Origin: Blasia pusilla
Lineage: Eukaryota
Length of the DNA stretch: 64,000 nucleotides
Assembly: GCA_050084515.1 (NCBI GenBank)
Contig: CM114271.1
Location: 43,028,001-43,092,000 of the forward strand
Direction of reading: 5' to 3'
Both the position numbers and the translations under genes were made by a program. The first letter of the stretch is position 1. Each line of letters opens with the position of its first letter. This document shows, piece by piece, positions 1 to 54,921 of the stretch. The notes beneath the pieces are model-generated. The model was not told where the DNA came from and did not search any database. It was given only the letters and a program-made list of their open reading frames with translations.

Positions 1-1437
1 CACCGTACTATGCGCTAGAGGTACATCAACCAAAAACCTGAGATGCATAAAGCGCCTAACACATCTCCGAACAAAGACCAAATGAGCTACAATGATGCAG
101 CACCTGACACGGCATAGTTAAGAACTCGGCGATTAAGCCCCTCTAGGCAGAATAGCCCAAAGATGGGTGACCAGTTATGCAAAACTCAAATCCCAAATCC
201 TGCAAAAATTGCCTCACGCCCAAGCTTGCTTGCTTGCTCCTTGCTCCTTACTCCTTACTCCGCCTCTCACGCCCACTCGCCCCGAACTACCACGAGTTGC
301 CTCGAAGCCTCAAAATGCTCGAGACATGCCCCTATCGCCCTGTTCGCCATGCTTCGCTATGGAGAGAGGTCCAACCAGGGCGCCCCCAACGGGATAGGCG
401 TCTCCAAAAATGAACGAGTCACCAACCAACCAGCCCCTCCGATCCGCTGTCCACCATAGCCAGACCTTGAGCTAGTCCGCGAAATTTCGATCAGAAATTA
501 CTTCACAAATACGTGACCAAAATCAAATCTGTTTCGATCAAAATTCAATTGACCACCATAGCTATCTCCCCACAAAAACTCAACTACAACCGAGCTCCGT
601 ACTCCGAGCTAAAAATCAGACAAACTTGCTGTCCATACACCTCTAGAACCGCAAATCCGACAGCGCTTCCGCCAAGTTTCATGCACGCAGAAATCCGCAA
701 CGCTCCACGCACTCGAGCAGATGGCTTCACATGAGATCACAATACAAGTAGCAATAGGAACCTCTCACCCAATCTGGATGAACTTCAACAGAGCTTCCGC
801 ACTCCAAGCTCTCCACATCAGAAAACTGTCGAACACGACCAGAATCTTCAATGCTTGATAACTTCCAACTCCCTTGACGAAATCCGGCGATCTACAACGC
901 GTTGGAAAGCTCTCAGCAAGGCGCTTCTTTCCCAGCCAACCGCACACCAGATTCACACCTCCAAAATAGGCCACAAGCCACGAACATCCACGGCTGAGTA
1001 CACAATCAGCCCTAACCAGATCCTACTGATCTACAATCGAAGCTACCATCGATCTACTCCAGTTCTTTGAGTGAAATCCGTGAAAGACCTACTATCATAA
1101 AACACGTTTACAATCACATACAATCGAGCCAAACCCACTCCACGATGGGAGAATCTAGGTCGAAGCTTGCGGGAAACACCATAGCCAAGAGCTCTACTCA
1201 CTACCAAGGCTAACTCCCAACGCAACAGGCTCAACTCACAAAGAATCGATTGTTCTTTGAGGGCAAGCCACCTTATATCCTCCAACCTAAGAGCGGGCCC
1301 CACTGGGAAAGTCACCCCAAGTGAGTAACCCCAACCCTATGTATGGAACCGCATCTCTACCAAGCCACTACGGTCCTACATAAGGAATGGCCTCTACCAG
1401 CACTATACTCTACGACATAATCCGTATGGTCATGACA
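1..1437 (-). mobile_element. 5' end (repeat B, PBS, 5' leader) of copy 2 of the DNMT-carrying Gypsy element; continues off the left edge of the window
   Basis: 1-1437 is a same-orientation homolog of 10747-12161. On the minus strand it starts TGTCATGACC at 1437; B ends GATTTCA at 1072 and is followed by CTCAAAGAACT. Confidence 0.9.
1072..1437 (-). repeat. LTR-like repeat B (about 366 bp, TG...CA)
   Basis: Near-identical reverse complement of 5767-6130 and homologous to 11794-12161; contains a TATA-like motif. Confidence 0.9.
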
Positions 1438-1690
1438 CATATTCTTCCTCGTGTACAAGCGTAAAATAGTTTGTAGGGATTTTATAGTTAGGAATTTTGG
1501 GGTCCGATGTTACGAAGAAGTGATCGCCTCGGCACTTCCATTTGTGATACCTGTCGTGAGAGAATGGAGAGTGTACATCATAATTTTGTATTGAAAAAGG
1601 AGAACTTATTAGAGAGTTCACCTTGCATCGGCCGCATCTACCGCAGCTAGAAGGCCCGCCCTTGTTCGAAGAAAGACTCTCGACACGACA
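1438..1690 (+). mobile_element. 3' part of inserted solo-LTR-like unit X
   Basis: Ends ...GACACGACA at 1690, the inverted counterpart of the TGTCGT start at 7166 (-). Starts with CATA, which matches the reverse complement of 6237-6240. Confidence 0.7.
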
Positions 1691-2380
1691 ACGCGAGTTG
1701 GCTTGCGTGCACATCGTCCACGCTTGTGGTGGACAAACTTGTTGCCTAGGGAGGTTCTACGTCGAGCATATGATGCAGTGCAGCGGGATCCTTGCCTTAC
1801 AGTGGATAGTATCTTGGATATTGGGCGACTTTCTCAAGTGGTGAGGGTTATTGATCGGTCATCCATGGCAGTGGTGAACCGTGTGGGCCAGCCTAGGATG
1901 GCACTACCCACATTTGTGAGTTTTCCCTCGTCACATGCCTACAGGGAAGGTGGTCTCGGGCTTGTATGGGATTCTCATGTGCGACTGTTGGTGGAGCCTC
2001 ACGCTGATGAGAGAGAGCGTGCGATGGGATTTGCTACTGGTGTGACAGCGGTTGCTTCCATTTCTGAGGCTTCACGACGTCATGTGTTGGGTCAAGCCAT
2101 GGACCTGAATTGTTTGACTTGGATTTTGAGTCTTGGTATGGCCGAGCAGCATCGACTTCGGACTATGTGTGTGGCTCTTCCACCCCTTGTGATGAGCTCG
2201 ATGGCTACCGGGACGGTAGAGGCATCGGCTGGGGGCGAAGAGAGTAGTATTTTGCATCCTTGGAGTAAATGGGATGTAATGGTTGGGCATGTGAAGTTGG
2301 TTGCTCATGCTGGTGGAGGAGTTATTTGCTCAGATGATGGTGTAGCTAAGGGTATACCATCTTGTGAGGGGGTTGCGTAG
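1691..2380 (+). pseudogene. C-terminal half of DNMT3-like C5 cytosine methyltransferase (motifs VIII-X) in Gypsy pol
   Basis: RVGLRAHRPRLWWTNL resembles DNMT3 AHRARYFWGNL; EPHADERERAMGF...RRHVLGQAMDL resembles motifs IX/X (ERIFGF...LLGRSW). Continues into RT. Confidence 0.8.
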
Positions 2381-2386
2381 CAGCCA

Positions 2387-3860
2387 ATGGCATCGTCCTC
2401 TCCCTCTAGTGTGCCAGTGGAGGAGACTTGGGAGCCATTACTTGGGCCCAAGCTTACGGGAGGTGAGAAACGACGCTTGATAAAATTCCTACGTGCTTAT
2501 AGGAGTTGTTTTGCCTTTAGCATGAAGGAGTTGGGTTCTCTGGTTGGACCCGGTATACGGATTGATTTGGCTAGTGATACGCCAATCTTCCGTCGTCCCT
2601 ACCGATATAGTGATATGGAGAGGGACCTGATTCAGAGTAGGACGTTGGACCTTTTGGAGGCTGGATTAGTGGAGTTCTCGCATGGAGAGTATGCATCGCC
2701 CCTTTGTCATGCTGCTAAAAGGATATGCATGGCAACTACACGGATAGGCGGATGTGTGGAGATTACCGTCCTATCAATCGGCAAACCAAGGCCGATAGGT
2801 ATGCCATGCCTACACTGAGGAGATCTTTGATGTGGTGGGACAGGCAAAGATTTTCAGTATTTTTGGATCTTTCGGGCAGATACCATCAATTGCCGATTCG
2901 GGAGAGTGACAAGGCCAAGACAGCATTTTGGGGTGTCAACTCTCATGGCAAGGATTGTTTGTACCAGTGGAAATTCTTACCCTTTGGGTTGAAGAATGCA
3001 CCTGCCGAGTTTCAGAGAGTGATGGACAGGATCCTAGGAGGGTTGGATTTTGTTCGGTGTTACATTGATGATATCTTGGTATTCACTAACACGGTGGAGG
3101 AGCATCAGATACATTTGCAGATTGTGTTTGAGCGGTTGAAAGCTCATGGTCTACGTTTGAATCCAAGAAAGTGTAAGTTCTTCCATGAGGATGTTGAGTA
3201 ATTGGGTCATTTGATCTATCCAAGTGCTTTGGGAGTTCAGCAAGCAAAGGTGGAGGCTATTGCACTTATTCCGCGTCCGGTAGATGTGAGTAGAGTTTGG
3301 GCATTCATGGGATTGGCAAACTACTATCGGAGGTATATGAAGGGATTTAGTGCTATGGCAAAGCCTTTGAACCAATTTCTGAAATCAGATCAAGAGTGGC
3401 ACTGGGAAGATGATCAAGAGAGAGCTTTTGTGGAGCTTAAGGCCCAGTTGGTGGCGGCGCCTATCTTGAGGAGACCTATCAGAGGGCGCCCATTTTAGTT
3501 ACACACTGATTGGAGTAGGTTGGGACTTGGAGCGGTGTTGACACAACATGATGATGAGCACATGGAGTTTGTGGTGGCCTATGCAAGTCGTTTGAATAAT
3601 GCAATGAGTCGCTATAGTTCATATGAGGGAGAGTGCTTGGCGAGAGTGTGGGTTGTGGCACACTTTAGGTGTTACTTGTTTGGCACACATTTTACCCTTG
3701 TTCTTGATCACCGGCCGCTCAAGTGGTTGATGGAGTCCGACAAGCTTACATGGAAGCTTGCACGGTGGGTTCTTATCTTACAGAGTATGACTTCCGGGTG
3801 GTACATAGACCGGAGTTGCCAACCTTGATCTTTGATGGGTTGAGTAGGAACCCATATACT
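2387..3860 (+). pseudogene. Ty3/Gypsy reverse transcriptase and RNase H (frameshifts and stops)
   Basis: PIFRRPYR, RMCGDYRPIN, YHQLPIRESDKAKTAF, LPFGLKNAPAEFQR, YIDD at 3061, HTDWSRLGLGAVL, YEGECLA, DHRPLKWL, DGLSR. Confidence 0.95.
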
Positions 3861-4249
3861 AGCCAAGAGGATGCAATCGGGGCTAGATGGCATGGCGAGG
3901 TTGATGAGGAGATGGTGCCACGTTGGCATACATCCGCCTTTTTATGTTGGTTAGGGGTGGATTCTAGTATGGAGGACCACATGACATCTTACTCTAGTCT
4001 GAGGGTAGATGGCCACCTTGGATCGTAAGGTTGGAGATGGAGGCAGATCATCGTGATATTCATGATGATGCATTGGTGTTGGAGTTCCTACGGACCAGTA
4101 GGGTGCCAGGCATAGTGAGTGCCAAGGAGCGAGACCGTGTTCTTCAACATGCTAAGAGGTATCGATTGGAGGCAACACATATTCTCTGTGTGTGGGAGGA
4201 TGGTAGAGTACGAGTAGTGCCGCATTTGGCTCAGAGAGAGCGCATTGTG

Positions 4250-5140
4250 TGACATGCCCATGAGGAGTTGGGACATTTTGGGGTAAAGCATACGTATAGC
4301 TTACTCCTTGGTCAGTATTGGTGGCATGGCATGCATACTCAGGTGCAGCAGTTGGTGTCACGTTATATGGTTTGTGACTGGGTGAGGGCATCATTCAATG
4401 CCCCTACACCACAGTTACACCCCTTGCCTATTATGGGGTTGGGTTACCGTTGGAGTGTGGACTTTGCGGGACCGTTACCGTTGACTGTACGACATCATGG
4501 ATATGTGTTGGTGATGGTGGAGCACTTCTCCAAGTGGATTGAGTTGGTGGGATTACCTGACAAGGCAAGTGAGGGAACGGCGTACGCGTTTCTTGATAGA
4601 GTGCTTAGTCATTTTGGTGCACCACCAAGTGAAGTCTCGACCGACAGGGTAGAGAGTTTCAGGGTGAGTTTGGTCTTGTGTGACAAGGCGTTGATTGATC
4701 ATCGGACCACGCCTCGAGATCATCCAGAGGCGATGGTTTGGCCGAGCGTGTGGTTGGGACGGTGAAGAGGGCATTGCGCAAGTATGGCCTCTGAAGGGGC
4801 ATCTTGGAGACAGGATATTCAATTGCCATGGTTAGCCATGGGGTATAGGTTCATCGCCAAGCATCCTTGGCTTCCTTCTCACCTTATTTTTCATTATACG
4901 GCCGAGATCCGGACTTGCCGCAGCAAGAATTGGGGAGTCTAGTGAGGTGGTGAACCTTGATGACCCGAGAGATGTGGATGAGGGTGTGTTCTCGCCGGGC
5001 GGAGCTCTTTCGAGAGTTATGCCAACGACCTTTGAGAATCTTGCCATTGCTCAACACAGGGATACGTTGCGGTATGCAACCATTCGTGGAGGTTATCGAC
5101 CATCGATTCGTAGGTTCCATGTGGGGACTATGTCTATTTG
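4250..5140 (+). pseudogene. DDE integrase (HHCC zinc finger and rve core), degraded
   Basis: HEELGHFG...CDW, WSVDFAGPLP, VEHFSKW, STDR, HPEA..GLAER. Confidence 0.9.
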
Positions 5141-5344
5141 TAGCGATTGCCCGACAACGTTGGATGTGACGGCAGCCGCACTATTTTACGAGTGCGTGAG
5201 GTGTTAGCTTCTGGAGTTCTCATGTTGGAGGGTCGTGATGGAGTTGTTTGGAAGGACCATGTGCGTAATTGTGCGCCATGTCATCTTCCAAATGTGGATG
5301 GTACTGTTGACCCAAGCTTAGCCATGATACGTGCTAGCTTGAGG

Positions 5345-5485
5345 TGCATGTTGTGTGGGTCTGCTGGTAACGTAGCCCGTATGTTGGTGTGTGATCGGTG
5401 TTCTAGGGGTTGGCACATGATGTGTTTGACTCCACGTTTGGATGTTGTTCCTATTGGAAGGTGGTTTTGTCCTCGATGTACTTAG
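5345..5485 (+). pseudogene. PHD finger (C4HC3) at the C-terminus of the integrase
   Basis: CMLCGSAGNVARMLVCDRCSRGWHMMCLTPRLDVVPIGRWFCPRCT followed by stop. Confidence 0.9.
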
Positions 5486-5647
5486 GAGAGGTAGATGACT
5501 TGATCTTTGCATGATATGGATTACAGATGTGCGACTAACGATGGGGCAACCTAGCACCCGTCCTTCTGATTCGTACACCCAAGAAGGTGTATAGCATGTA
5601 GTAGATGTATAGGGCTACCTGGGAGTTAGAGGGACCTAACCGCTTGT

Positions 5648-5660
5648 TAGGGGGGCGAGT
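5648..5660 (+). promoter_or_regulatory. Polypurine tract of the DNMT-Gypsy element
   Basis: TAGGGGGGCGAGT directly before TGTGGTAC at 5661. Confidence 0.75.
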
Positions 5661-6236
5661 TGTGGTACACTTGCGTTTATGGATACTCTCGTCTATGTTA
5701 TGTATATATGTGAGTATGGTATGTCAGCGATGTATGTTGTATGACGATGGGGATTCGCACGACAGCTGTCGTGACCATACGGATTATGTCGTAGAGTATA
5801 GTGCTGGTAGAGGCCATTCCTTATGTAGGACCGTAGTGGCTTGGTAGAGATGCGGTTCCATACATAGGGTTGGGGTTACTCACTTGGGGTGACTTTCCAA
5901 GAGGGCCCGCTCTTAGGTTGGAGGATATAAGGTGGCTTGCCCTCAAAGAACAAATGAGTTCTTTGAGTTGAGCCTGTTGCGTTGGGAGTTAGCCTTGGTA
6001 GTGAGTAGAGCTCTTGGCTATGGTGTTTCCCGCAAGCTTCGACCTATATTCTCCCATCGTGGAGTGGGTTTGGCTCGATTGTATGTGATTGTAAACGTGT
6101 TTTATGATAGTAGGTCTTTTACGGATTTCAATTGTGGTACACTTGCGTTTGTGGATACTCTCGTCTATGTTATGTATGTATGTGAGTATGGTATGTCAGC
6201 GATGTATGTTGTATGACGATGGGGATTCGCACGACA
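5661..6236 (+). repeat. 3' terminal A-B-A split repeat (A1 5661-5764, B 5767-6130, A2 6133-6236)
   Basis: A1 and A2 are 104-bp direct repeats with 2 mismatches. Junctions are CA-GC-TG and CA-AT-TG; B matches the 5' repeats. Confidence 0.92.
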
Positions 6237-7166
6237 TATGTGACAATAGGAAGAATCACGGGAGTTGGAGATTGCATGACATGGTTCATGAACGCCTCCC
6301 CAAAGTGATAAACTAAATAGCGAGTGAACCAGTGCCTATCTACAAAGAGTACCTTGACATGGTAAGGATTGAGGAAAGGAAAGTCGGGCACAGCTCGTGC
6401 TCCACCCCTATCCATGCTTGACACACATTCTCTACTCTCCTCAAGAATGGGTTTTGGCGGAGTTATTCTCCCAAGAGGGATAATCCACTCTCATTGGGGA
6501 AGTAACAAGCCAAAACATCCGCTATTTTAGTATGACTAAACTCCTATACGGTGACAAACCTCTCATCCCCACACACACACACCACACTCTAGAAATCTCT
6601 CGAAGAATAGACCATGGTCAAGTTACACTCCCAAGAGGGGTGATCCACTCTCATTGGAAGAGCAAGCAATCCCAAAGCCATACACTCAAGAGAGACACGA
6701 GAGACTCAAGATGTGGAATAGAAGGTGATGAACCCTTGAAGGTCCCTCCTCTTTATATACTCACAAGGGATCCACAAGAGTACGAAATAGAGCTTATCTT
6801 ATCTTGTGCCACATGGCTTCCTCTCAAGGCTTAGCCAATCACATTTTGACACAAGTAGATTTCCTCTTATCTCTTCCAAAATAGCCTCTTTTACCCACTT
6901 GATATTTTCCTAACTACCCCAACTAACCTAGCCACCAACCAAGACTACTTTTGCTTTTCATTAAAGCAACTACTTTACTTTTATAAAGTCATTTTTTATT
7001 TATTACCTCCTTTTCCTAAAGTTGGGCCCGCATAAAAGAGGCACCATAAAGAGGTTTAAACATAAGAATCTCCTTTTTCTAAGCCAATTTACTTAATACT
7101 AATGAAACTCTATCTAACACTTAATGACGAAGGAGTTTACACACTGGTTGATTTTACTATACGACA
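6237..7166 (-). mobile_element. 5' part of inserted solo-LTR-like unit X
   Basis: Starts TGTCGTATAG at 7166 (-), has TATATAAAG near 6755, non-coding. Joins 1438-1690 through the shared CATA. Confidence 0.7.
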
Positions 7167-7690
7167 GCGCTGCATCCAACAACACCGCTGGTCCAATCCA
7201 AGATCGCACCTCATGAACAATTGCCATCATCCGGGTCCGAGTGTGACCCAACAATGGAACATTCTCCAGAATGTAAGCTAGAGCATGTGCTTGATGAACC
7301 TGAAGATGTCGTAACACCCGTAACATCTCCCAAAACAATCGAGACCTAGGGTCGTGTAATCCCTCACCATGACCAGGATGTATATGACCCTCACATGGCC
7401 ATCCAACAATCACCAAATCCACAAGACCAACACTCTCAAGGTCCTGCGCCCCCAACAATACAATGTGTGACGGAAAAGCACGTTGGTACCCACGAATAGG
7501 TGATGGCGGCAACAACTGATGATATCTCCGCATCAACTGACCAATATGTCGAGATGAGACTCCGGGCCGTCTCATCTCACTCCATATACACGTATCTCTG
7601 CACAAGAATACCGGCCTGCAACACTACAGCCAAACCAGTGCTAATCCCACCAAAGAGATCTAACACACAAATGCCCTCCGGCGGATACTG
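7167..7690 (-). pseudogene. N-terminal half of DNMT3-like cytosine methyltransferase (motifs I, IV, VI)
   Basis: CVLDLFGGISTGLAVVLQAGILVQRYVYME (motif I/II), VDLVIVGWPCEG (catalytic PC), GLHDPRSRLFWEMLRVL, YILENV, PAVLLDAA. One stop near 7577 and a frameshift. Confidence 0.9.
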
Positions 7691-8104
7691 CCACATAATG
7701 GGTGTAGTATCTAAAGGGGATAACCCAACTGGACCAGAAGTAGAAGTCCGCCGTGGGACCTCCTCTTCCTCGTGAGGTATAACAGCCTCACACCAAGCCT
7801 CCTCCACTAGGCGATCAGCCTCCTGCCGTAAACTCCAAAGTGGCACATCCAATGATGAGGATGCCACTACTGCAAAACTAGGGACCTCCTCTACCTCCTC
7901 ATGCACAGGAGAATCCATAACAGAAACATTACCCTCCAAAAAGTCTCCTAGCCAAGTGACTACTCCACTAAAACCAGCTACAGATGCTAACACTGTTGGG
8001 GAAGACCCTCCTGGTTGAGCCCCATAAATAAATCTCACAGGAACTTGGCTCATACGTCCATCCCCGGACTGCCAACCAGGTCTATAAGACGCTCTCTCAG
8101 TCCA

Positions 8105-8533
8105 CTAATCCATCTGAAAACCCATCGGGTACAATACTGCTCCTCCAACTAGTACATCATACGACTCGGCTGATGTGACTACCGGTGATACTCCCAACCG
8201 GGAGCTATCAGTCGCATGATCTGGTCTCAACTGTACAGAAAACTTCTCCCGTGTCATGAATTCAGACCTATCATTGGCTCCTCCAAGTGATGTTTGAATC
8301 TGGAATGGGCAAGGCTCAAGCTCTGACCTCCGAATACCCAAACCAATACATGCCGCCTTTCCCAACATCAAAGGCTGGGCACCTGAGTCTAACAAGACTC
8401 TATCTGGTCTATACACCTGTCCTGTAGGACTCACCAATCGGAATATCCCACTCCGGTTGTCCAACATACATACACCACGTGTAAGCCTCTCAAGATGAAT
8501 GGCTGGCCGGGCTGCTAATGCATCCATCTTCAC
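8105..8533 (-). pseudogene. Retroviral-type aspartic protease
   Basis: RVLLDSGAQPLML active site; YDVLVGGAVL. Confidence 0.85.
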
Positions 8534-10330
8534 CGCTGCTGCTTGCCAAGTAGCACTGCTACACCTGACATAGAGGGCCGCTCCACTGCAACACCCTCAT
8601 CCACCTCAACACGTGTAGCAGTAATACCCCCACATTCACACAACGTGGCTGCTAGCTGAAATACAGGAGCTAAGTCAACTCCTAAAGCCATTAGTTCCGT
8701 GGCCGAAAACAATGGGGATCCCAACACTGAAGTTGCCATCCGCAATACTGCATTGGATGTTGCATCTATGTCTACTACACGCGATGTAGATGCCTCAATC
8801 CCCACTATCGACTCAATAGGCTGCGTAGGAACCATGGATGGAGTCCTAAGCACCTCAGACAACAAGAATGACTGGGGAAGCCTAGCCTGCCTCCCAACCT
8901 CACCCCTCTGTGGGTCCAACTCCATAGTAGCATCATGTGGCTCTGACGCTTGAGTGGCTCCTCTCGTAACAGCAACTGATGCCTCAACCTGTGCTACACT
9001 CGCCATATAGAAGAGATCATCCCCTTCATAAGAGGTGGAAGCCCCTGCTCCCGAACCTGATCTATGCTGGATACCAGCCATAGTAGCCAACTTTTGCTCC
9101 AACTGCTCAATCCTGGCAACCATAGCTGACTCTGTCGTAGTGGTAGGGGTGGCCACCGTAGGCTCCCCAACCACTAGTCCACCTCTACCACCTCTATCAC
9201 CTTGGCCTCTCGGAGCTACTCCACCACGGCCGCGGCTTGATCTCAACTCTGGATGAAGATCAAAGCAACGCTCTCGAGGATGACCTGGTCTCCTGCAATG
9301 ATCACACTGAGTTGGGGCCGATTGAGGCCCATCCTCCAAAGTCCGTCTCCCATCCTCTTGGGGACAAAACTTCCTAACATGATCACCTCCACATGTCCAA
9401 CATGACATGTGGAGGTGATCATGTGAGGATGATTCACCCACATTCTCACCCACATAAGAGTAGCATCATGTACCCTTCGGCGCAACTCTCTGTCCAAGAT
9501 CCCATACCAAAATCGATCGCTCGAGCCTCGCCACACAGGTAATGAAATCAGCGTGCCGATACGAGTGTATGCCACACGAAGACTCTCACCTGTCTTTTGC
9601 TCAAATTCTTGAAGACTCCTCAACTTCTCTGTCTTCACTCCTGATAGTTCTTCTTCAACCTCTTGAAGAACTCTGCAACCGGGCTAAACGATGGTGGGCC
9701 ACTAGTACCTTCTCTAGTACCCCCACTGGTACCTCCATGGGTACCTCCACTGGTACCCCCACTCCGGCTCGTACTCGTACCACTCAACGTCGGGTTGGCT
9801 GGCATAGTAGGAGCACTACTACCAATACCACCATGGGTGATAGACACATAGCCCAGAGACCAATATTGTCTCCACGCCTCAATCTCAACAACATGGTCCT
9901 TCCTAAACTCATGGTAATCATCCATGGGTGGTCCCTCCAAGTGCTGAAACAACCCCTTCCAAGCCAAGAAGGATGTAAACAACGTGGCGTTCCGCAACAT
10001 CTGCATATCACACCACGTATCAAACTCTTGCATGAAGTCCTCCAACTCAATGGTGCCCACTGCACCCGAGTATCATCGTGGGCCCTTCATGGCCCCATAT
10101 ATCCCGTCCATGTCCCAAATCAATGGAGCTGCAACACTCGATAACAACGTAGAAGACTCGGTGTTTGGAACACCCTCGTCCTCCTCTTCATCAACCGTCG
10201 GAAGTGGAAAAGGAAGCCAATACCTAAATCCACTCCGTGTGAAACCACCACTATCCGCACCACGGTCCCCAACCAGACCACCAGACAGCTCCGTGATGAC
10301 CAAGGCCGATGCCGCAACACCACCAAATTA
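8530..10330 (-). pseudogene. gag with two zinc knuckles (degraded)
   Basis: LEDFMQEFDTWC..., LRSLQEFEQKTGESLRVAYTRI (retrotrans_gag-like QxxGES), CWTCGGDHVRKFC, CDHCRRPGHPRERC. Confidence 0.8.
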
Positions 10331-13041
10331 CCACCACTAAGTAACCAAGTGACGTCGATGTCGTTGTACTATTCTAGCTCTACTAGCTATGGGTGTAGGC
10401 AACCTAACCTGTCATCACCACAAGAAGCCTCCCACGGTATACTGGTCATCACTCCAGCCTTACTACCGGTAGCACACAGGAATAACACTACTCAGGAAAT
10501 CAACGTCAACCGTAACAATGGGCGCGCAAGCAAGAAGCAACGATGGAGGGGATCCAAACACAAGAAGTCCAACGACAATCCTCCAATCGCAAATGGAAAT
10601 CAAGGTAACACAATCCACCAAACGTGGCGCCCCCTAATCCACAAAACCCACCACATAATTCTTACGCAATAGCTACTCCGCCGCGGGTCGATGACGTGCT
10701 AGTCGGACTCGCAGCACCTGAAAATATCACCTGGATGGAGAGGCTACACCGTACCATGCGCTAGAGGTCCATCAACCAAAAACCTGAGATGCATAAAGCG
10801 CCTAACACCTCTCCAAACAACACCAAATGAGCTACACTAGTGTGTACACTGGCATAGTTAAGAACTTAGCAGTTAAGCGTCTTCCAAGCAGAATAGCCCA
10901 AAGATGGGTGACCAATTATGCAACACTCAAATCACAAATCCTGCAAAAACTGCCTCACGCCCAAGCAAGCATGCTTGCTTGCTTGCTCCTTGCTCCTTAC
11001 TCCCCCTCTCACGCCCACTCGCCCTGAGCTACCACGAGTTGCCTCGAAGCCTCAAAACGCCGAGACATGCCACGCTTTTCCACGCTTCGCTATGGAGAGA
11101 GGCCCAACCAGGGCGCCCCCAATGGGATAGGTGTCTCCAACAATGAACGAGTCACCAACCAACCAGGCCCTTCGATCCGCTGTCCACCATAGCTAGTCCG
11201 CAAAATTTTGATCAGCAATTACTCCACAAATCCTCAACCAAAATTGAATCTTCTTCAACCAGAATTCAATTGACCACCATAGCTATCTCTCCACAAAAAA
11301 TCAGCTACAACTGAGCTCTGTACTCCGAGCTAAAAATCAGACAAACTTGCTGTCCATACACCTCAAGAATCGCAAATCCGACAGCGCTTCCGCCCAGTTT
11401 CATGCACGCAGAAATCCGCAACGCTCCACACACTCAAGCAAATAGCTTCACATGAGATCACAATACAAGTAGCAATAGGAACCTCTCACCCGATCTGGAT
11501 GAACTTCAACAGAGCTTCCGCACTCCAAGCTCTCCACATCAGAAAACCATCGAACACGAACTAGAATCTTCAATCCTTGATAACTTCCAACTCCCTTGAC
11601 AAAATCTGCCGATCTAAAGCACGTTGGAAAGCTCTCAGCAAGGCGCTTCTTTCCCAACCAACCATGCACCAGATTCACACCTCCAACATAGGCCACAAGC
11701 CACAAAAATCCACGGTTGAGTACACAATCAGCCTTAACCAAATCCTACTGATCCACAATCGAAGCTATCATCGATCTACTTCAGTTCTTTGAGTGAAATC
11801 CGTGAAAGACCTACTATCATAAAACACATATAAAATCACATACAATCGAGCCAAACCCACTCCACGATGGGAGAATCTAGGTCGAAGCTTGCGGGAAACA
11901 CCATAGCCAAGAGCTCTACTGACTACCAAGGCTAACTCCCAACGCAACAGGCTCAACTCAAAGAACTGACTATTCTTTGGGTGCACTCCACACTATATCC
12001 TCCAACCTAAGAGCGGGCCCTATTGGGAAAGTCACCCCCAACTGAGTAACCCCCAACCCTATGTATGAAACCGCATCTCTACCTAGCCACTACGATCCTA
12101 CATAAGGTTTGGCCTCTACTAGCACACTATATTCTACGACATAATCCGTATGGTCATGACAGCCTTCACCCTCCTTGAGACTCTCGCATATTTCCATAAC
12201 CACAGATTGATGGGTGGGTGCATGGGGATCTCCATACCCATGATATTTGGTTGTATTTCCCAATTGGGATTTTCAATCGCCAAGTAGTTCCTCTTTCGAC
12301 TCTCGACACACTTTAGTGTTTGTCATGATCAGTTGGTTCCATTTGATACCCACATTTGTACATAGCTGCAGAGTTAACAAAACATCATTTGATACGCTTG
12401 AATGCTTCAACCATATTAGAAGATCATCATCCATTCACGAAGTTCATTCCCACAAGATCCAAGGAAGATAACATAGTGGTTTTGTTGGATTCCCAATCCT
12501 AGACGATGGATATTCATGTTATTGAGGCTTTAGTTATTTGAGATTAATTACCACCTCAAGCAGATGTAGAGGGTCCTACATTAGAGGTTGTAACCAATTT
12601 GTCAATGGATGTGCCAAGCGAGTCCTTCACACACACTAGATTATGAGAGTGTGGAGATATTAAGTGCATTGGGACTACCACCAATTGTTCCAGTGGGAGA
12701 CCCAGCCTCCACTCAAGTTTGCAAATTTAAAGAAAGTTTAGTGGAAAATGGTGGAGGATTTGAATCATTTTTTTCACACTTCGATGAGAAAGAGGGTGTG
12801 GGATGGCAGGAAGTGTAACATCCCCTTGCATTCATATGATCCTTGGATGAGACGTGTTTGGAAGGACACAAGATCTCGCTGCATGAACATTGGAAGGGAG
12901 TGAGGAAGGAAGATTCAACTGCAAAGAAGATTCATGCAGATGTTGTTTGAACATTGGGGAATGAATGTGGAGTGGAATACATTGTTGTTGGGACCTAGAG
13001 TAGTCACTCAAGCTACCACATCAAGGGCTTTGGAAAAAAAT

Positions 13042-14960
13042 TGTCGTGCACCTACTCTCCTTGAACGTTAATCTTTGTTGTTGCGAAAGCATGCGTTCAA
13101 TAGGGCAAAATCTCAACGGTGATCTGCATCCAAACACGCACTCACGTTAGTCGAGTTTGGATCAATCAGCGATTCTAACTTGCCGAGTTCTCGACTCAGC
13201 CTCTTATCAAGCTCGACCTTCCTAGTTTCATGGTTTACAACACATGCAAGTCTTTGAAGACTTGGGACAGACTTTATGTTCGGTTCAAGAAACTCAAATG
13301 ATATTTTAAATGCCTTACGGTTCCAACTGTCCAATGGACCTCCAATGAGTCCCTAGCTGCGAGTCACAAAAATGAAACGTGGGTTGGAATTCAAGTGTGG
13401 CTTACGAAGTCCACTCCCTTGGATCAGGTTTGGGTTTCAAGTTCCAAAGCCAAACTCCCGTTCCATCTCGTGCCCTTGAGACACCGTTTGGTGCTCAAAG
13501 TGGGGTTCGTGTTCCAAGACTCCTTGGAGAGATTCCCCTTTACTTGTACTTGTGGGGATCCCTGTCCTCCCCCTAACTTTAGAGAAAGATAATCGGGCCC
13601 CTCAGATTGACCCTCAACCTGATTGCTCTCATAGTTGTTTTTGGCCAATATCTCAGCTTTTACTTATGCATTTGCTAAGATCTTTAGTGCGTTGGAAGCG
13701 TCTGAAGATACAATTTCCAATACTACCTTACTTGTCCCAAATGCATCTTGGGGCTAAACGTTATGGTCCAAAACATATTCAAAATCCCCAAACGCTAGTC
13801 GTGTTCCAAAACTGATTCTCACCTCTTTGGCAACCAACCTTCCTAGACCCAACTCATCTCAAGTCTTGGTTCACGTTTGGTCCAGGTTTCCTAGTCGCGA
13901 CCAAAAACGCATGAAATGCACAACTTTGTTCCGTATTTCATCTCTTGGACTTTTCCAAGAGACCTTTCCAAAAGCCTTTTTAGAGCGCGATCATTGTAGC
14001 GTGAGTCCACTAGAATTCTAATGTTCCTCTTGGTGCCTATTTGATGTTCATTTGGTTATGAGGGCTGCGAGACTTACCCCTCCTTAGAAGTTTGATGAGG
14101 ACATCAAACGTAATTTTTTTTTATGTTAAGTTATGGGAAGCCGACCCGGTAACACTGAATTGCGTTGTGGTAGCTAACCCGCAATTCCTCTTTTGGCTTA
14201 ATTCTTGGGCTGTCGCTTGCAGGACTTAGATTTATTAGCTTTTCCACTTGAATCAGCCTAGACCAATTCTGTAGAACTAATCTAAACTATCAAAATAAGC
14301 AAACTAAGCCTGCAACCTAAGACTTCATTTACTCACTATTTGTAAACATCCGCATGTTTACCTAACCAATTCGTACTACTTTCGGGGCACTCATATTCTA
14401 CTTAGGCGCGGCACTAAGTTCACTCATGCAACATGAATGAGATCACCATAAACCTCAAGACAGACTAATTTGCCCCGCCGACGTTAGGGCGGGTCCAAAT
14501 GTTAGCACTTCAACACTTGATCTAGATGCCTTATCTGAATTACCAGCTCTCATCTCAAATACTCATTGTTTTGCCTCTTTAACCTACATCCTAAGCATAT
14601 GAAGAACTACTAATTTTCATGCACTACCATTCTCAAAATCACAATCACTAGCATCGAATCTCCAAATCCATGCATTCTTTATTGCAACAACTAAACTTTT
14701 CTAGTTACAACGGGTTATCGGCCCAAGCTTCTTGGTCACAAGTTATGTCCTTTGCTTCACCATGTACTAACGTATATGCCTATCTTACATCCATTTGAAG
14801 TCTCGCAATGCCTCTTGCGCGTGTTCAAGATTTGCCTCCGCAATCCAAGTCGCCTCTTTCACATGGTAGCCTTTCCACTTGACCAAGTACTCGCACTTGG
14901 TGGCTCTCGTCCGGAACGTACGATGGTCTCCATCTAGAACTCTGGTTCCTCATTTTTGAT
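13042..14960 (-). mobile_element. 3' fragment (chromodomain, 3' UTR, PPT, LTR 13042-14072) of a relative of the 47691-54921 chromovirus
   Basis: Minus strand encodes YLVKWKGYHVKEATWIAEANLEHAQEALRDF. PPT AAGGAGGGGTAAG precedes the LTR; the LTR end GGAGAGTAGGTGCACGACA is homologous to 54901-54921. Confidence 0.85.
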
Positions 14961-16648
14961 GACAACAGCACAAGAAATATTAGGGGCAATAAATTCCAAG
15001 AGGTTGTAGGATGGATCCTCAACAATTAACTTTGCAAGCGTGTGACATCGATTTCAGCCCTTCAATGAGTAGCTTGTATTGCATTTGCAGGCAAAGAGTG
15101 ATAGTCCAACAAGACATTAGTGGCTATTTCCTTCAGCGTTTTGAGTTAACTGTAGGACACGGTAGAGCACATATCCTGAAAATGCTACACCATCAGATTT
15201 GGAGTCTTCAAGATTGTAAATAGCTTTCTCCTTGCCTTATTTTCCAATTCCTTGGCACCATCAGTGTCATTTCAGATCTCCCATTGGCAATCGCTCATGT
15301 CTCCTTTCACAAGTTTCTCACTCATCGATTTAGGTTTACAATCTAGCAATATGAAACTATCACTTACGGGATTTCTCCGTACCCAAAAGCATTTTGAGAA
15401 AATTCTGGCTCGGACTTTTTTTCCGCTTGGGCAAGCATTCTCGCACCAAAGCAAATGGAGACAAGCTGATATTACGGGGATTGACATTCCACGACTATCA
15501 TGGTGTGTTTCTGCAAAAGAGAAAATTAGGGCAGAAGCTTCTTCTTGACATTGATGCATGGATAGACTTAACAAGGTCTGGTGTCACCCATCAGCTCGAT
15601 GACTCAGCCAACTATGCCGAGATCTACAACTACCATTCCCCCAACTACATTTAGGTTTCAATCTTTTCACTCATTATTTTTTAGGTGGGCGTACCCATTA
15701 GACTCTCATCATTAATTAGTGCTACATGCATCTTCCGTTTGTAGCTTCTACCCTAAATTCACTTTACTACGATCGAATAAAAGCCCTACCAATAAACTTA
15801 CTTATGCGCCTACGGTAGTCAATTTTTATTTTATTCACTATATCCACCCACACTTAAATTTCTTCCTTCGGGATGTGGTATTGATTGCTTCTTATGCAGC
15901 AATCTACCAAAAATTGCAAATAAATGAGACCTTACCTTTAACCATCTCCTACCTTTTTCATCTCACTTCTCCTTTAGACTAAGCAACCAAATACATGTGT
16001 TAATTAAGATCTAACCTTCACTCCTTTTTTTCATTACTGCAATACTACATAAGTCTAGACTTTTCCCCAACCTAATCTAGACTATTCTAGGCCGCATACT
16101 TGTTATGCTAGTAGAGTGAAGTCACCACATCAAACTCAACTTTCTTTACAAGCGTTCTATAATGAAGTACTACAAGTAGTCGATGACATATCGACAATGT
16201 TCTTACAAAAAGCTTACGCCACCACATGATGCCATGCACCAAGTATTTGAAGAAGCCTGTGCTTTCCATGCGGTCGTGGATGCCCTAAGTTAGCTATGAC
16301 TATCTACAGCCTCCGGTGGACCTAACGAAACAAGAGTCTCGCACGAAGGCACCGGTAGCGCTTCTTTCTCCTGTTTGTGGGTCGTCGAGGCTGAAGGTGA
16401 GGTCCTCCGAAGGAGAGGACCGATTGCAATGGGCGTACGAATCAATTGGGAGTAGAGGCAGGTGACGGTATCAAATCGAAGGCATAGCGGGGGCTGGGTT
16501 GTAGATATTTGAGTTGGTCGGTGGTGTTTCACGAGGGAAATTTGCCGACTCGAAATTGCAGAGTAGGAGCAAGGAGTTGCGATTGCTATTTTGCTTAAAC
16601 GTTCGTTGGAGCGGAGGAACGAGAAGTGAAGTTGGAAGAGAACTAGGA

Positions 16649-35856: not shown

Positions 35857-37589
35857 GCAAGATCAATGCTTTTGAATATAGATGGTGCCACATGCACGTG
35901 ATTTTGTTGTAGTTTTGAGATCGGTGTATATGGAGGATTGGGGCTTTTGGAGTTCATGGAAGGTATTCCAGATTGGCGGATCTTCACGGGATCTCCACGG
36001 GTAGCGGCACATATATTAACGGCATCGATTATAGGGTCTTCCGCCGGCCTTAGGCTTTTGGATTTTTGAGAGAGGGACATCGCGATACATAGGGGCTCAG
36101 TTTCGATGAATATTTTCAATCTTCAGCTTCATGGAAGATGAAGCAACTATGAATCAAGGGAAACAGAAACGAGTGTGAAGAAGTTCTTCTTATCTCCACG
36201 ATTCAATTTTGATCTGTCACCATGGACAAAACTCGTGCAATGAAGAGGACCAGAGGAGTGATCAAGCTCCAACAGGCTTCCAGACCTGCTCAAGGACTTA
36301 AAGAAGGGGATAGAGGCCATGAATCAGATGGGGACACTACAAAACGCGTGAAGAAAGGTGCTGGAAGTGTTTCTTGCTCTGAAATTTCTACTACCAGCTT
36401 ATCATTGTCAAATTTGAACAAAAACTTCAACGATGCGTTTGTGAAGATTTTTATGGGGCCTGCAGGAAAGAAGCCAGCCAAGTCTCACAAGGGATCACTT
36501 GTAGAACTGCAAGAGTTGTCAGCCAGGTTGAAGGTCATTTCAAATGTTTGCAATACTATGGAAACGATTGTGCATGGATTTTTATCTGTGCGCATTTCTC
36601 TACAGAAGCTCGAAAGTTCCATGTCTGAAAAGACCATCGATGGCTTACCTCAAATCATTGAGAAGTCTGTGTTGCAGGTACAAGCACTCTTGACAGATGA
36701 AAATGTCCTTCAATTGAGTGTGGCAAATAGAGAGGTGCTCCAATGTTTAGATCAGAACCGTAGTGCTTGGAAATTTCTACGTGCTCAGATTTACTTTGAT
36801 CTCTGCCCACAAAGCTTACATAGAAATTCCTCCCCCTAACTGATGAATTCTATTCTGAAGTAATACGTGAGCTCACATTGTGAGTAAATTTCTCAAAATT
36901 TATTTTCTATCTCGTTTTGATCCCAGATTGTCCTACTTGACTTTAATATGTGCATTATTTCACATTTTTGGCCTTGGACAAATGATTTCATTGTATGACC
37001 ATTAAGTATATCACGGCATATTGGAACATACTTTCGTTAAAAACATGATACTTTCAGAATCCTTTTCCCTGATTTTATCTGTAATGAATCCCTTCATGGA
37101 GTTATCAGGGTGTTCTATCGTTATATTCTTGGACACTAATACATAAAAAGTATAAGCTGAGAACATACACACTCTCATTTCACAGGTAGGCAACATGTCC
37201 TTTTAGATGATGTTTGGAATCTGTCCTCATTCTTTTTTTTACAAAAATTGAGAAGATAGGTTACAAGAGTAGAATGTTTTCCACTCAATGGGGATACATT
37301 AAATACTCTCCACTTTGTCGAAAGATAGTTGAGATACAGACTTCACTTCCAAAGATAACTCTAGCACACCGGATGAAAAAATGGTGGGGAAACACACTGT
37401 ACTACTCTAATAAAGCCGTCTATTTTGTGGTCCTCTTAATTTTATGTTGGAATTATTTCCATATTCACCACTAATCCATTCATCTTATTCTATACTTTTA
37501 CACATGCTTTCCATACGTTTAGGTAATACAAGCGATAACAAAAGGGTGTAATTCCCTAAACCGTGGCTATGGGCTTCTCTACAATCGTA

Positions 37590-38910
37590 TGGCAAAGGTG
37601 GAATGCTTTTTATTTTCCGCTAACTAACTACAACATAGAAAGAAATGGTAAAAGAAAGAGTGGAATACTTTCCTTTCGCTACGCACATCAGCTTCCCATT
37701 TCCATCTCTACAATAAATTTTCACTACCGTCATGTGTAATGTGCTTGGAAGATGGAATCCTTTGTATTCAACCCGAAACTCCCGACACTTATATGAATTT
37801 CCTCTTAATTTCTTGGTCTCCTTAATTCTAAGATGGAATACTTACCATATTATCCACTTCTCCGTTAAGTTTATTTGATAGTTTAAAACCTATTTTCTAT
37901 TTGTTTGGGTAATTGAAGGGTTTCAGGTTTTCCTTTACCGATTGCAAAATCTTCCCATTTTGCCTTCCAAATTTTTCCTTTTGGTTAAAGGTGGAATATT
38001 CTGCTCGCCATCGAATGTTTACGACACATGAACATTACTTATCCTTGTATGCCATTACATACAAAGGTAATGTCGAAAAAGTTTCCAAACGATTAAAATA
38101 TATAGATTTGGTTGTAAGAGTATAAATATTTGTGTGTATCAACTATATTTGTGTGTAAAATCTAAATAACTAAAATACACAAACAAAAAATGGCAAAGCA
38201 AAAAGTGGAATACTTTCCTTCGGCTACGCACAACAACTTCCCACTTCTTCGAGTGTAATGTGTGTGGAAGATGGAATGCTTTCTATTTACCTCGATCCTA
38301 CCGACACTCTTGTGAATTTTCCCATAATTTCTCGGCCTCCTGGATTCTAAGATGGAATGCTTACCATATTGTCCACTTATCCATTCACTTTATTTTATAG
38401 TTTTACACATGTTTTCTATTTGTTTCTATTTTCTGCTAACTAACAACAACACAGAAAAAAATTGGTAAAAGAAAGAGTGGAATACTTTCCTTCGGCTACG
38501 CACAACAACTTCCCACTTCTTCGAGTGTAATGTGTGTGGAAGATGGAATGTTTTCTATTTACCTCGATCCTACCGACACTCTTGTGAATTTTCCCATAAT
38601 TTCTCGATATCCTTAATTCTAAGCTGGAATGCTTACCATATTGTCCACTTATCCATTCACTTTATTTTATAGTTTTACACATGTTTTCTATTTGCTTCTA
38701 TTTTCCGCTAACTAACAACAACACAGAAAAAAATTGGTAAAAGAAAGAGTGGAATACTTTCCTTCAGCTACGCACAACAACTTCCCACTTCCAATCTTAT
38801 AATAAATTATGATTTTCTCCGAGTGTAATAGATGGAATGCTTTCTATTTACCTCGATCCTACCATATTGTCCACTTATCCATTCACTTTATTTTATAGTT
38901 TTACATCTTC
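37590..38910. repeat. Tandem repeat, unit about 272 bp, about 4 partly degenerate copies
   Basis: GTGGAATACTTTCCTT(C)GGCTACGCACA recurs near 37660, 38206, 38478 and 38749. Confidence 0.85.
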
Positions 38911-53600: not shown

Positions 53601-54921
53601 GTCGAATACGAGAGCGATCCAATAGTAGTACGATTTGTGGACCAGGTAAACAGGTGTGATGTTTACAGTAATGAGTCGAAAGAGTCTAAGGTTGCACACT
53701 TAGTTAGCTTATTTGATAGGTTAGTTCCTTGGAACTAGTCCAGGCTTATCGAAGATGAGAGGCTAATAATTCTAAGTGGGGCAAAGCGACAACTAGAGAC
53801 TAAGAGGAATTGCGGGTTAGCCACCAGAACGCAATTCAATGTCAAGGGTAGGCTGCCAGGAGACTTGACATAATAAAGGTTTGCGTTGATGAGGGCATCA
53901 ACCTCTAAAAGAGGGGTGAGTGTCGCGACCCTCATGACCAAACAAGTGCCAAGCGGAACATCGGAACATTAGCGGGCTCACGCTAAGATGGTTTGCGCGT
54001 TGGAGTTGTCTCAAAGAGGAGACAAGAGACGAGACGCGAGCGAGAAGTCGCGTTTCAGATGTGATGGTCGCAACTCAGAAACCTGGACCAAACGCGGAAT
54101 GAGACTTGAAAGAAGTCGAGTCTAGAAAGTGGGTTGCCAAAGGAAAGATCCGGATTTGGAACGCCACTTGCGTTTGAGAGTTTCCGACTGTATTTATGGC
54201 CATAACTTTTAGCGCCAAGATGCGTTTGGAGCAAATAAGGGTGCGTTGGAAAGCTTATGGAGAGCCGGTTCAAACGCACCAAAGATCGCTGCAAACGCAT
54301 AAGCAGCGACCGAGATACGACCCGAAAACGACTGTAAGTGGAGTCGGGTTAGAGCCACAATGAAGGGCCCGAACCTCTTTTCCAAAAGGGGAGGGGTTAT
54401 TGGAGAACCCCAGAAGTACTAGTAAGGGGGAAGGTCTCCGAGAGTGCTTGGAACCCAAACCCCACTTTGGGCGCCGCGGGGCGGCTCAAGGGCATGGAAC
54501 GGAACGCGAGTTTGGGCGTTGGGTTGGAAAACCTGCACCAAGTCCATTGAGACGATTTTAGACATCCCTCTTGGATTTCACGCCGCGACTCAATTTCTTG
54601 GGTCTCGGTTCGGAACTCACACGAGGACCGTTGAACAGTTGGGATCGCTAGGCGTGTAAGTGCCGTTTCAGATCCCTTGACTAACCAGGAAGTCTGTTCC
54701 AAGTCTTGAAGGACTTGCCATGTGTTGGGAGCTAGGAACTAAGGAAGGTTGAGCTTGATGAGACGCCGAGTTGAGGACTCGGTGGGTTGGAACGCCGGTT
54801 GGCCAAACCCGACTAACGAGAGTGCGTGTTTGGGTGCAGATCGGCGATGAGTTCGTGACCTACTGAACGCACGCTTCCGCAACACTAAAGATTGACGTTC
54901 AAGGAGGGTAGGGGCGCGACA
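47691..54921 (+). mobile_element. Full-length Ty3/Gypsy chromovirus LTR retrotransposon (LTRs 47691-48657 and 53921-54921)
   Basis: LTRs TGTCGC...GCGACA; 5-bp TSD ACAAC on both sides; PBS TGGTATCGTGAGC (tRNA-iMet-like) at 48660; PPT AAAAGAGGGGTGAG at 53907-53920. Confidence 0.96.
48780..53206 (+). pseudogene. gag-pol (gag, PR, RT, RNaseH, IN, chromodomain) broken by many frameshifts
   Basis: [67 protein letters not shown]...IHPTFHVS, FEVETILRSRRWANKYEYLIKWKGY. Confidence 0.93.

Follow-up and report, generated by a model that had tools for sequence, protein, structure and literature searches.

A split-repeat terminus in a Ty3/gypsy-type element

The stretch of Blasia pusilla DNA analyzed here, referred to as the window, comprises 64,000 nucleotides (nt) and carries within positions 1-12400 two copies, designated N and E, of a long terminal repeat (LTR) retroelement of the Ty3/gypsy type. 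The 3' terminus of N (5661-6236, plus strand) is built from two repeats, A and B, whose order was established by reading of the sequence, with a repeat finder and by blastn. A polypurine tract (PPT, AGGGGGGCGAG) at 5649-5659, which is conserved in related loci, is followed by a single T, repeat A1 (5661-5764), the dinucleotide GC (5765-5766), repeat B (5767-6130, 364 nt), the dinucleotide AT (6131-6132) and repeat A2 (6133-6236), the 3' end of the integrated element. A1 and A2 have a length of 104 nt each and are 98.1% identical. Two further copies of B reside in the window in reverse-complement orientation (1437-1072 with 97.0% and 12161-11794 with 91.6% identity), and blastn detected no additional copies of A or B within the window. 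These minus-strand copies constitute the 5' integrated ends of N (1072-1437, starting with TGTCATG) and of E (11794-12161). Both open with TGTCATGACC, their preceding flanks are unrelated (ending in GAAGAATATG and GGTGAAGGC, respectively), and A is absent upstream of B at either end (1437 and 12161).

The sequence on the 3' side of B, CTCAAAGAACT, is not a primer binding site (PBS) of the tRNA type. Together with the final A of B it forms a 12-mer that is complementary to AGTTCTTTGAGT, located within B itself. This PBS-like 12-mer, the first base of which is the last base of B, is found at 1061-1072 in N (ACTCAAAGAACT) and at 11783-11794 in E, both on the minus strand, and is conserved after B in related loci. 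Since A adjoins the PPT and B adjoins the PBS-like site, the LTR made by reverse transcription is A plus B, about 450-470 bp, with A1 providing the 5' part of U3 and B providing the remainder of U3 followed by R and U5.

The integrated ends do not coincide with the edges of this LTR. The tetranucleotide TATG borders both the start of B in N (1438-1441, CATA on the plus strand) and the end of A2 (6237-6240), and this 4-bp target site duplication (TSD) therefore links a B start to an A end. For E, the 5' flank reads AGGC in element orientation (12162-12165) and the partner TSD is expected outside the window. The integrated termini are 7-bp inverted repeats, TGTCRTG...CACGACA, and represent the two halves of a 16-nt perfect palindrome, CACGACAGCTGTCGTG, which spans the A1/B boundary at 5758-5773 (CACGACA-GC-TGTCGTG) and places two integrated termini head to head. 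No other match occurs in the window when up to two mismatches are permitted (chance expectation 0.08), and the palindrome is the proposed site of integrase action. Judged from the sequences of the termini, the conserved inverted ends are the start of B and the end of A and not the ends of the reverse-transcription LTR. The first-pass annotation of this sequence had claimed the PPT-A-GC-B-AT-A order, two 5' ends that begin at B without A, the palindrome at the A/B boundary, a TSD connecting 1437 with 6236 and, hence, integrated ends that are out of register with the LTR of the cDNA. All of these claims were borne out, the TSD also by a contig from a public sequencing run that joins 1443 to 6235 (see below).

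The same arrangement recurs in related loci

Metagenome contigs were scanned with the integrase open reading frame (ORF), which yielded 80 loci with 62-82% amino-acid identity, and A and B were mapped on them by blastn. An exact 23-mer of B matched no metagenome contig. The 17 matches to an upstream B included two duplicate pairs, one pair being devoid of a B start, and reduced to 14 distinct 5' ends; one more brought the number to 15. All 15 start at B with TGTCATGACC (variants TATC and TCTC, one degenerate), their flanks are all different, and none has A upstream. The B at the 5' end is always followed by CTCAAAGAACT or a near variant. Neither in the related loci nor in the window did any copy carry A-B at its 5' end. 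Complete A+B LTRs at both ends, named in the first-pass annotation among the observations that would speak against it, were thus not encountered: B alone makes up all 15 of the 5' ends in the loci and both of those in the window.

Among 37 distinct 3' ends, a single A is found in 20 and the order A-B-A in 13, of which blastn recognized 11 and visual inspection two (L065 and L022); the other four are incomplete or internally deleted. Both flanks are available for 11 copies, and eight of these show perfect 4-bp TSDs at the B start and the A end, the chance of a 4-nt match being 1/256 each. For copies ending in A-B-A the duplications are TCTC (L013), AAGG (L017) and AATC (L034), and L048 has AATG beside a degenerate B start. 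The first-pass annotation had predicted B...A-B-A or B-A-B...A copies with 4-bp TSDs; the former are present in independent relatives, the latter at none of the 15 5' ends in the loci and at neither of the two in the window.

The form with a single A had not been foreseen. These copies (L005, L007, L016, L033, L035, L041, L063, L069 and others) have the structure B...A and hence lack a terminal repeat; five of the seven with both flanks possess a perfect TSD, namely TACA (L033), TGTT (L035), ATTA (L041), TACA (L063) and TGTG (L069), the remaining two matching at three (L059) and two (L058) of four positions. They may be real (dead-end) insertions, products of later A x A deletion, or A-B-A loops collapsed during assembly.

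The identity between A1 and A2 tracks that between the 5' and 3' copies of B (92.9 versus 92.3% in L017, 87.7 versus 86.3% in L048, 98.1 versus 97.0% in the window), which fits with all repeats having been identical at the time of insertion. Two loci, L072 and L071, contain no A or B repeats within their contigs. They are uninformative on element ends because both limits of their contigs seem to fall within the long B of that lineage. In L019, a long tandem array (2492-5137) directly follows the end of A; an unrelated tandem-repeat block lies at 37435-38905 in the window.

Junction sequences carry the signature of an end-to-end joint

The boundary between PPT and A reads AGGGGGGYGAG-T followed by TGTGGTACA throughout the related loci, the two bases in front of A being GT. 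The boundary between B and A2 reads CATTTTCA-GT-TGTGGTACA. The B/A spacer is GT in nine distinct copies, AT in five to six, including the window, and different in one. The spacer is thus the same dinucleotide that separates the PPT from A, just as blunt joining of the end of U5 to an unprocessed start of U3 predicts. In line with an earlier proposal that the B/A boundary looks like the LTR-LTR junction of a circle, the element contains one U5-to-U3 end-to-end junction.

The A/B boundary has the form GCACGACA-NN-TGTCATGACC, where NN is GC, AC, AT or GT, the variants being transition derivatives of GC. The diverged subfamily L022 possesses an unrelated and longer B that ends in GATT, i.e., with TT and not with CA, and still keeps GT before both A copies as well as CACGACA-GT-TGTCATG. 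Likewise, L072 (68% identity) has the PPT, an A of about 105 nt and then CACGACA-GT-TGTCACG.

In the contigs of public runs that match window 1-12400, most differences between copies are transitions (A>G, T>C, C>T, G>A). Decay follows the same course in the spacer of the palindrome (GC to AC or AT) and in the CpG of each terminus (CG to CA or TG). This pattern fits deamination of methylated cytosines.

The element is split by an inversion in the window

Contigs of four public runs (X1, X8, X2 and X18) were compared with window 1-12400, where stretches without listed joints provide no evidence; throughout, this region proved to be high-copy repeat. X2 and X18 contain a joint of positions 1692 and 7170 on opposite strands that extends 244 nt to either side. 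The loose end that precedes 1692 in X8 is exactly the reverse complement (rc) of 7170-7186. Across the joint, a single frame stays open for 380 codons and includes the DNA methyltransferase (DNMT) motifs GWPCEG, ENV and ERERAMGF. Homologues of both pieces are adjacent and collinear in related loci, e.g., at 681-1070 and 1074-1727 in L074, and ORF1 of L072 runs collinearly over the joint (residue 1107 at 7168 on the minus strand, residue 1109 at 1697 on the plus strand). As read joints, open frame and collinear relatives all cross it, the intact element is rc(7170-12161) followed by 1692-6236, about 9.5 kb in length, and it is split in the window by an inversion. Within 1438-7170, segment 1692-7169 is inverted compared with the arrangement in other genomes. 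The first-pass annotation had included neither this inversion, by which the Gypsy body at 1692-5660 continues upstream into rc(7170-11793), nor the DNMT domain. Direct comparison revealed no similarity between 1438-5660 and rc(6237-10746). We rejected a reading of these segments as two unrelated elements because the read joints show them to be two halves of one.

The individual parts can be assigned as follows. The 5' internal region of N (1-1060, minus strand), comprising leader and gag side, runs off the window and is 89% identical to 10747-11793. The 5' internal half of E (7167-11782, minus strand) covers the gag side, the protease region and, at 7170-7623, the N-terminal part of the DNMT; intact copies continue from here into 1692. 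The 3' internal half (1692-5648, plus strand) encodes the C-terminal part of the DNMT (1692-2150), reverse transcriptase (RT), RNase H, integrase and a PHD finger, as judged by Pfam matches and collinearity with the L072 ORFs, and all its frames are broken. A further part is a solo-LTR-like unit, termed T, of 1179 nt (rc(1438-1690) plus 6241-7166) with the termini TGTCGTG...TACGACA. Its first 253 nt (T-left, 1438-1690, minus strand) and last 930 nt (T-right, 6237-7166, plus strand, ending in TACGACA) are separated by the insertion of N into T, and a contig from X18 departs from the window at 7166, confirming the end of T. The unit shows no similarity to A or B.

A second joint, present in X2 with at least 233 nt on each side, connects 1443 with 6235 on opposite strands. 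Its simplest reading is rc(1443...) followed by 6235..., the uninterrupted target of N. In X18, unit T is interrupted by unrelated sequence 5-6 nt from the insertion site of N (1443 and 6235), the loose ends beginning with GTAGGGTTTAACAC and ending with CCCATGTCCTAC, respectively.

In its simplest form, the history of the locus would be as follows. An older copy, E, would have resided on the minus strand and received T in its DNMT region, leaving the target duplication GCGC/ACGC at 7167-7170 and 1691-1694, the intact sequence of which is given by the loose end in X8. The younger copy N would then have entered T, creating the TSD TATG at 1438-1441 and 6237-6240. Finally, the inverted homologous bodies of N and E would have recombined, thereby flipping the intervening segment. 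The sequence identities fit this history: they amount to 97.0% between the B copies at the two ends of N and to about 92% between either of these and the B of E. The inversion is best explained by recombination of two copies of one element that are nested in opposite orientation; a misassembly at the same place would look alike.

Coding capacity

The element has the order gag-protease-Dnmt3-RT-RNase H-DDE integrase-PHD over its ca. 9.5 kb. On the plus strand of the window, Pfam matches comprise RT (2719-3198), RNase H (3202-3825) and the zinc-binding and core domains of integrase (4253-4762), followed by a PHD finger at about 5345-5479 in an ORF at 5144-5482. On the minus strand, a fragment of a C5-DNMT is encoded at 7117-7623 (Pfam DNA_methylase, 4.9e-07). 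The sequential order of protease, RT, RNase H and integrase typical of Ty3/gypsy Pol proteins is seen for the latter three domains in the window and for the complete series in L072, the best-preserved relative. ORF1 of L072 (1369 residues) encompasses an aspartyl protease (residues 708-763) and the DNMT (residues 940-1086); after one in-frame stop, ORF2 (1047 residues) specifies RT, RNase H, H2C2, rve and PHD domains.

The DNMT of L072 (Pfam DNA_methylase, 1.8e-13; DNMT region 3673-5082) finds its best matches among solved structures in DNMT3A, DNMT3B and DNMT3C (about 2e-07), compared with 7.5e-05 for bacterial enzymes. The corresponding pieces in the window match solved structures weakly (0.002 to 0.05) or not at all, and the assignment to Dnmt3 therefore rests on L072. 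The nearest named homologues of the DNMT-region ORF are proteins from Marchantia polymorpha, Calypogeia fissa and Sphagnum with 61-79% identity, several of which combine DNMT, RT and RNase H.

The integrase in the window matches rve and Integrase_H2C2 and is frameshifted after the sequence DHPEA. For the L072 integrase, the best solved matches are the enzymes of prototype foamy virus (PFV, 1.5e-21) and Ty3 (1.8e-21), with the D, D and E residues aligned. A tyrosine recombinase (Phage_integrase) was matched by none of 26 ORFs in the window, 16 ORFs in related loci and the two long ORFs of L072. The element thus conforms to its initial description as a Gypsy element with a DDE integrase. About 2 kb of the 5' coding region have no Pfam assignment, and an ORF of 311 residues (8533-9465, minus strand) gave no usable match in the protein atlas. 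Three plus-strand ORFs (226, 130 and 175 residues) at 9464-10669 run antisense to the gag-side region of E; they have no Pfam match and may be due to chance.

Initiation of reverse transcription

The PPT is clear and conserved, and the place of a tRNA-type PBS is taken by the conserved self-complementary 12-mer. Complementarity between the PBS-like 12-mer and its counterpart in B is 12/12 in four and 11/12 in six of 19 rows, at homologous position. When RNA beginning with AGTTCTTTGAGT was folded, nucleotides 1-12 paired with the PBS-like site (z = -1.69). In elements of the Tf1/sushi type, the transcript serves as its own primer, its first bases being complementary to the PBS. The present element resembles these in the complementarity of 12 nt at the U5/PBS boundary with a 12-mer in the LTR, a candidate 5' end of the transcript. 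On this sequence-based comparison, minus-strand priming is probably Tf1-like self-priming with the 12-mer in B as the 5' end of the RNA. A tRNA scan detected no tRNA genes in the window, which has no bearing on the PBS.

A proposed circle cut at the internal palindrome

How can an LTR of the structure A-B give rise to elements that begin with B and end with A? In the model put forward in the first-pass annotation, reverse-transcribed DNA is circularly permuted before it becomes an integrated copy. As worked out here, full-length linear cDNA (A-B...A-B) would be closed end to end, yielding a 2-LTR circle and creating the B-GT-A junction. Integrase would then cut after CA on both strands of the palindrome adjacent to the PBS with a stagger of 2 bp. 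Owing to the 2-nt spacer, this would generate recessed CA-3'OH ends with 2-nt 5' overhangs, as in normal 3' processing, and concerted integration would result in B-PBS...PPT-A-B-A. Copies with a single A could originate when both palindromes are cut, either in linear cDNA or in the circle, or by later A x A deletion. A 4-bp target duplication is a mark of DDE integrases. We favor this model, to which we assign a probability of roughly 0.55, because the TSDs, the conserved palindrome, the GT signature of a circle junction and the absence of a recombinase all point to it. Precedent exists insofar as PFV and HIV-1 (human immunodeficiency virus 1) integrases are described as cleaving the palindromic 2-LTR junction (PMC1180852, PMC1905944, PMC4372172).

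Several observations weigh against this model or limit its support. The most important concerns copies of the form B-A-B...A. A 2-LTR circle holds two identical palindromes, so that these should be as frequent as B...A-B-A; in fact, they account for none of the 15 5' ends in metagenome loci and neither of the two in the window. Possible reasons are rapid loss by recombination between the two B copies (340 nt each, with just 115 nt between them), a directed choice between the palindromes, or a route that does not involve a symmetric circle. Furthermore, the intermediate is deduced entirely from junction sequences. The earlier proposal is the best fit to junctions, TSDs and palindrome, with the circle and its cleavage as putative steps. 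The single-A class (20 of 37 3' ends) could stem from collapse of the A-B-A loop in short-read assemblies, rendering its weight uncertain. The evidence for an empty site comes from one contig of one run (X2), the z-score of the RNA fold is modest and the transcription start is a prediction. The window copy, all 11 full-length relatives and most related copies are degenerate, without signs of current activity.

The alternative to be considered most seriously, which we nevertheless regard as unlikely, places the permutation in reverse transcription itself. Read-through RNA containing B-GT-A, or a template switch, would lead to linear cDNA ending in B-GT-A, and integrase would trim the left LTR at the palindrome by deep 3' processing. 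Such a route accounts for B...A-B-A only and would thus fit the missing B-A-B...A copies (0/15 and 0/2). In addition, an ordinary linear cDNA that is deeply processed at its two palindromes would directly produce B...single A, the form of 20 of 37 3' ends. However, given that A follows the PPT and B precedes the PBS-like site, the standard two-jump scheme delivers solely A-B at both ends, and no conserved primer site is present downstream of A2, where flanks differ in every copy. Moreover, the GT spacer is what blunt joining of a U5 end to a U3 start predicts.

It is very improbable that the DDE integrase is irrelevant to the layout and that the circle is integrated, in the manner of PAT, Ngaro and TOC1, by a tyrosine recombinase that DIRS-type elements provide in trans or that the unassigned 5' ORF conceals. 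The order A1-internal-B1-A2-B2 is indeed the textbook geometry of DIRS elements with split direct repeats as described in PMC8969392, and the 2 kb of 5' coding region devoid of Pfam assignments would offer room for such an enzyme. However, DIRS elements are described as lacking TSDs in the same source, as opposed to the perfect 4-bp duplications in eight of 11 copies here. In addition, conventional LTRs in the same window have TG...CA inverted repeats of the kind that forms the termini here, the scanned ORFs gave no Phage_integrase match and the DDE residues are retained in L072.

A local accident, i.e., nested insertions, unequal recombination of ordinary LTR copies or misassembly, is scarcely credible. 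The window is truly rearranged, with one inversion and two nested insertions in a region that is high-copy repeat over its entire 1-12400, but B...A-B-A with the same junctions and copy-specific TSDs occurs in 13 distinct 3' ends and four full-length copies from unrelated contigs as well as in a diverged subfamily, which refutes this reading unless all contigs are identically chimeric. Similarly, the notion that B alone (or B-AT-A) is the true LTR, integrated in the ordinary way with A being internal or flanking sequence, can draw on the facts that B is bounded by TG...CA and present at both ends and that B-AT-A has perfect 7-bp terminal inverted repeats, but is contradicted by TSDs that lie outside A2 and not outside the 3' B, by the uninterrupted target without A in the X2 contig, by 5' B copies that are followed by the PBS-like site and never by AT-A, and by a PPT that precedes A1, the end of which is not purine-rich.

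Implications

Taking the circle-cut model one step further, we tentatively suggest that in a Ty3/gypsy lineage extending from charophyte algae to bryophytes the 2-LTR circle may be an obligatory intermediate, that the attachment site of the DDE integrase may have moved to a palindrome inside the LTR, that every copy may be permuted and carry an inherited junction, and that the split-direct-repeat geometry known from tyrosine-recombinase retroelements may have been arrived at convergently by means of another enzyme. As a rule, 2-LTR circles are regarded as by-products of reverse transcription that lead to a dead end. If the model is true, the element would be evidence from nature that circles or internal sites can serve as the normal substrate of a DDE integrase, and it would explain split-direct-repeat geometry in general. 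The mechanism can be tested directly, as homologous proteins are annotated in the model plant Marchantia polymorpha. On the practical side, LTR finders built on the assumption of two equal LTRs with a TSD outside them will misplace the borders of such elements or miss them. A Gypsy element with a Dnmt3-like enzyme is reported as an acquisition of the Klebsormidium lineage in PMC5890265; the relatives in liverworts and mosses suggest a wider and older distribution.

Comparison with known systems

The closest described element is KnitGypsy-Dnmt3 from Klebsormidium nitens (de Mendoza et al. 2018, PMC5890265), an LTR element of the Gypsy type whose Pol includes a Dnmt3-related DNMT. According to the Fig. 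4 legend of that paper, it combines the domain composition of Gypsy with a repeat arrangement like that of DIRS. A DIRS-like layout on a Gypsy body has thus been in print since 2018, and the possibility raised in the first-pass annotation that the layout is undescribed was not upheld. Termini, TSDs, palindrome or mechanism are not dealt with in the main text of PMC5890265, the only paper in which a literature search found the name KnitGypsy. The search retrieved no description of Gypsy-Dnmt3 elements in bryophytes and nothing relevant on permuted or circle-cut LTR elements with a DDE integrase. The element studied here shares with KnitGypsy-Dnmt3, as far as the published description goes, the Gypsy domain order, a Dnmt3-like DNMT in the Pol reading frame and DIRS-like repeats; it differs in that its nearest named homologues are liverwort and Sphagnum proteins. 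For this reason, it is probably a bryophyte member of the Gypsy-Dnmt3 kind with DIRS-like repeats, a known but barely described group.

Split direct repeats (A1-internal-B1-A2-B2) define one type of the DIRS order, which is without TSDs (PMC8969392; the geometry also in PMC5890265) and to which TOC1 belongs as a non-autonomous member of the order (PMC9940879). Like PAT, Ngaro, TOC1 and SymbioDIRS-Dnmt3, our element exhibits this geometry, with one whole repeat unit and half a unit at each end. In contrast to the DIRS order with its tyrosine recombinase and lack of TSDs, it possesses a DDE integrase, 4-bp TSDs and TG...CA termini.

With conventional Ty3/gypsy elements it has in common the pol order, the PPT, TSDs of 4-5 bp and termini of the TGTCG...CGACA type. 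The window itself offers an example of a conventional LTR element at 47691-54920, with LTRs of about 965-1000 bp that are 95% identical, the termini TGTCGC...GCGACA, a 5-bp TSD (ACAAC), a tRNA-Met-like PBS (TGGTATCGTGAGC) and the PPT AAAAGAGGGGTGAG; its only Pfam match is the remnant of a Tf2-type integrase SH3 domain. A fragment with 70% similarity to it is located at 13041-14963 on the minus strand. In this element and in unit T, termini of the TGTCG...CGACA type are located at ordinary LTR edges. In conventional elements both LTRs are complete and the integrated ends are their outer edges, whereas here the 5' end comprises B only, the 3' end A-B-A or A, and both map to a palindrome situated 106 nt within the LTR.

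The proposed use of this palindrome is akin to the cleavage of 2-LTR junctions described for PFV and HIV-1, where a CA...TG palindrome likewise consists of two ends head to head and a circle is rendered competent for integration. PFV integrase is also the best solved match of the family's integrase, as represented by L072. In the retroviruses, however, the palindrome is the LTR-LTR junction and its cleavage is described as a minor salvage route, whereas in the present element the palindrome is fixed inside the LTR and the true junction, B-GT-A, would be inherited with the integrated copy.

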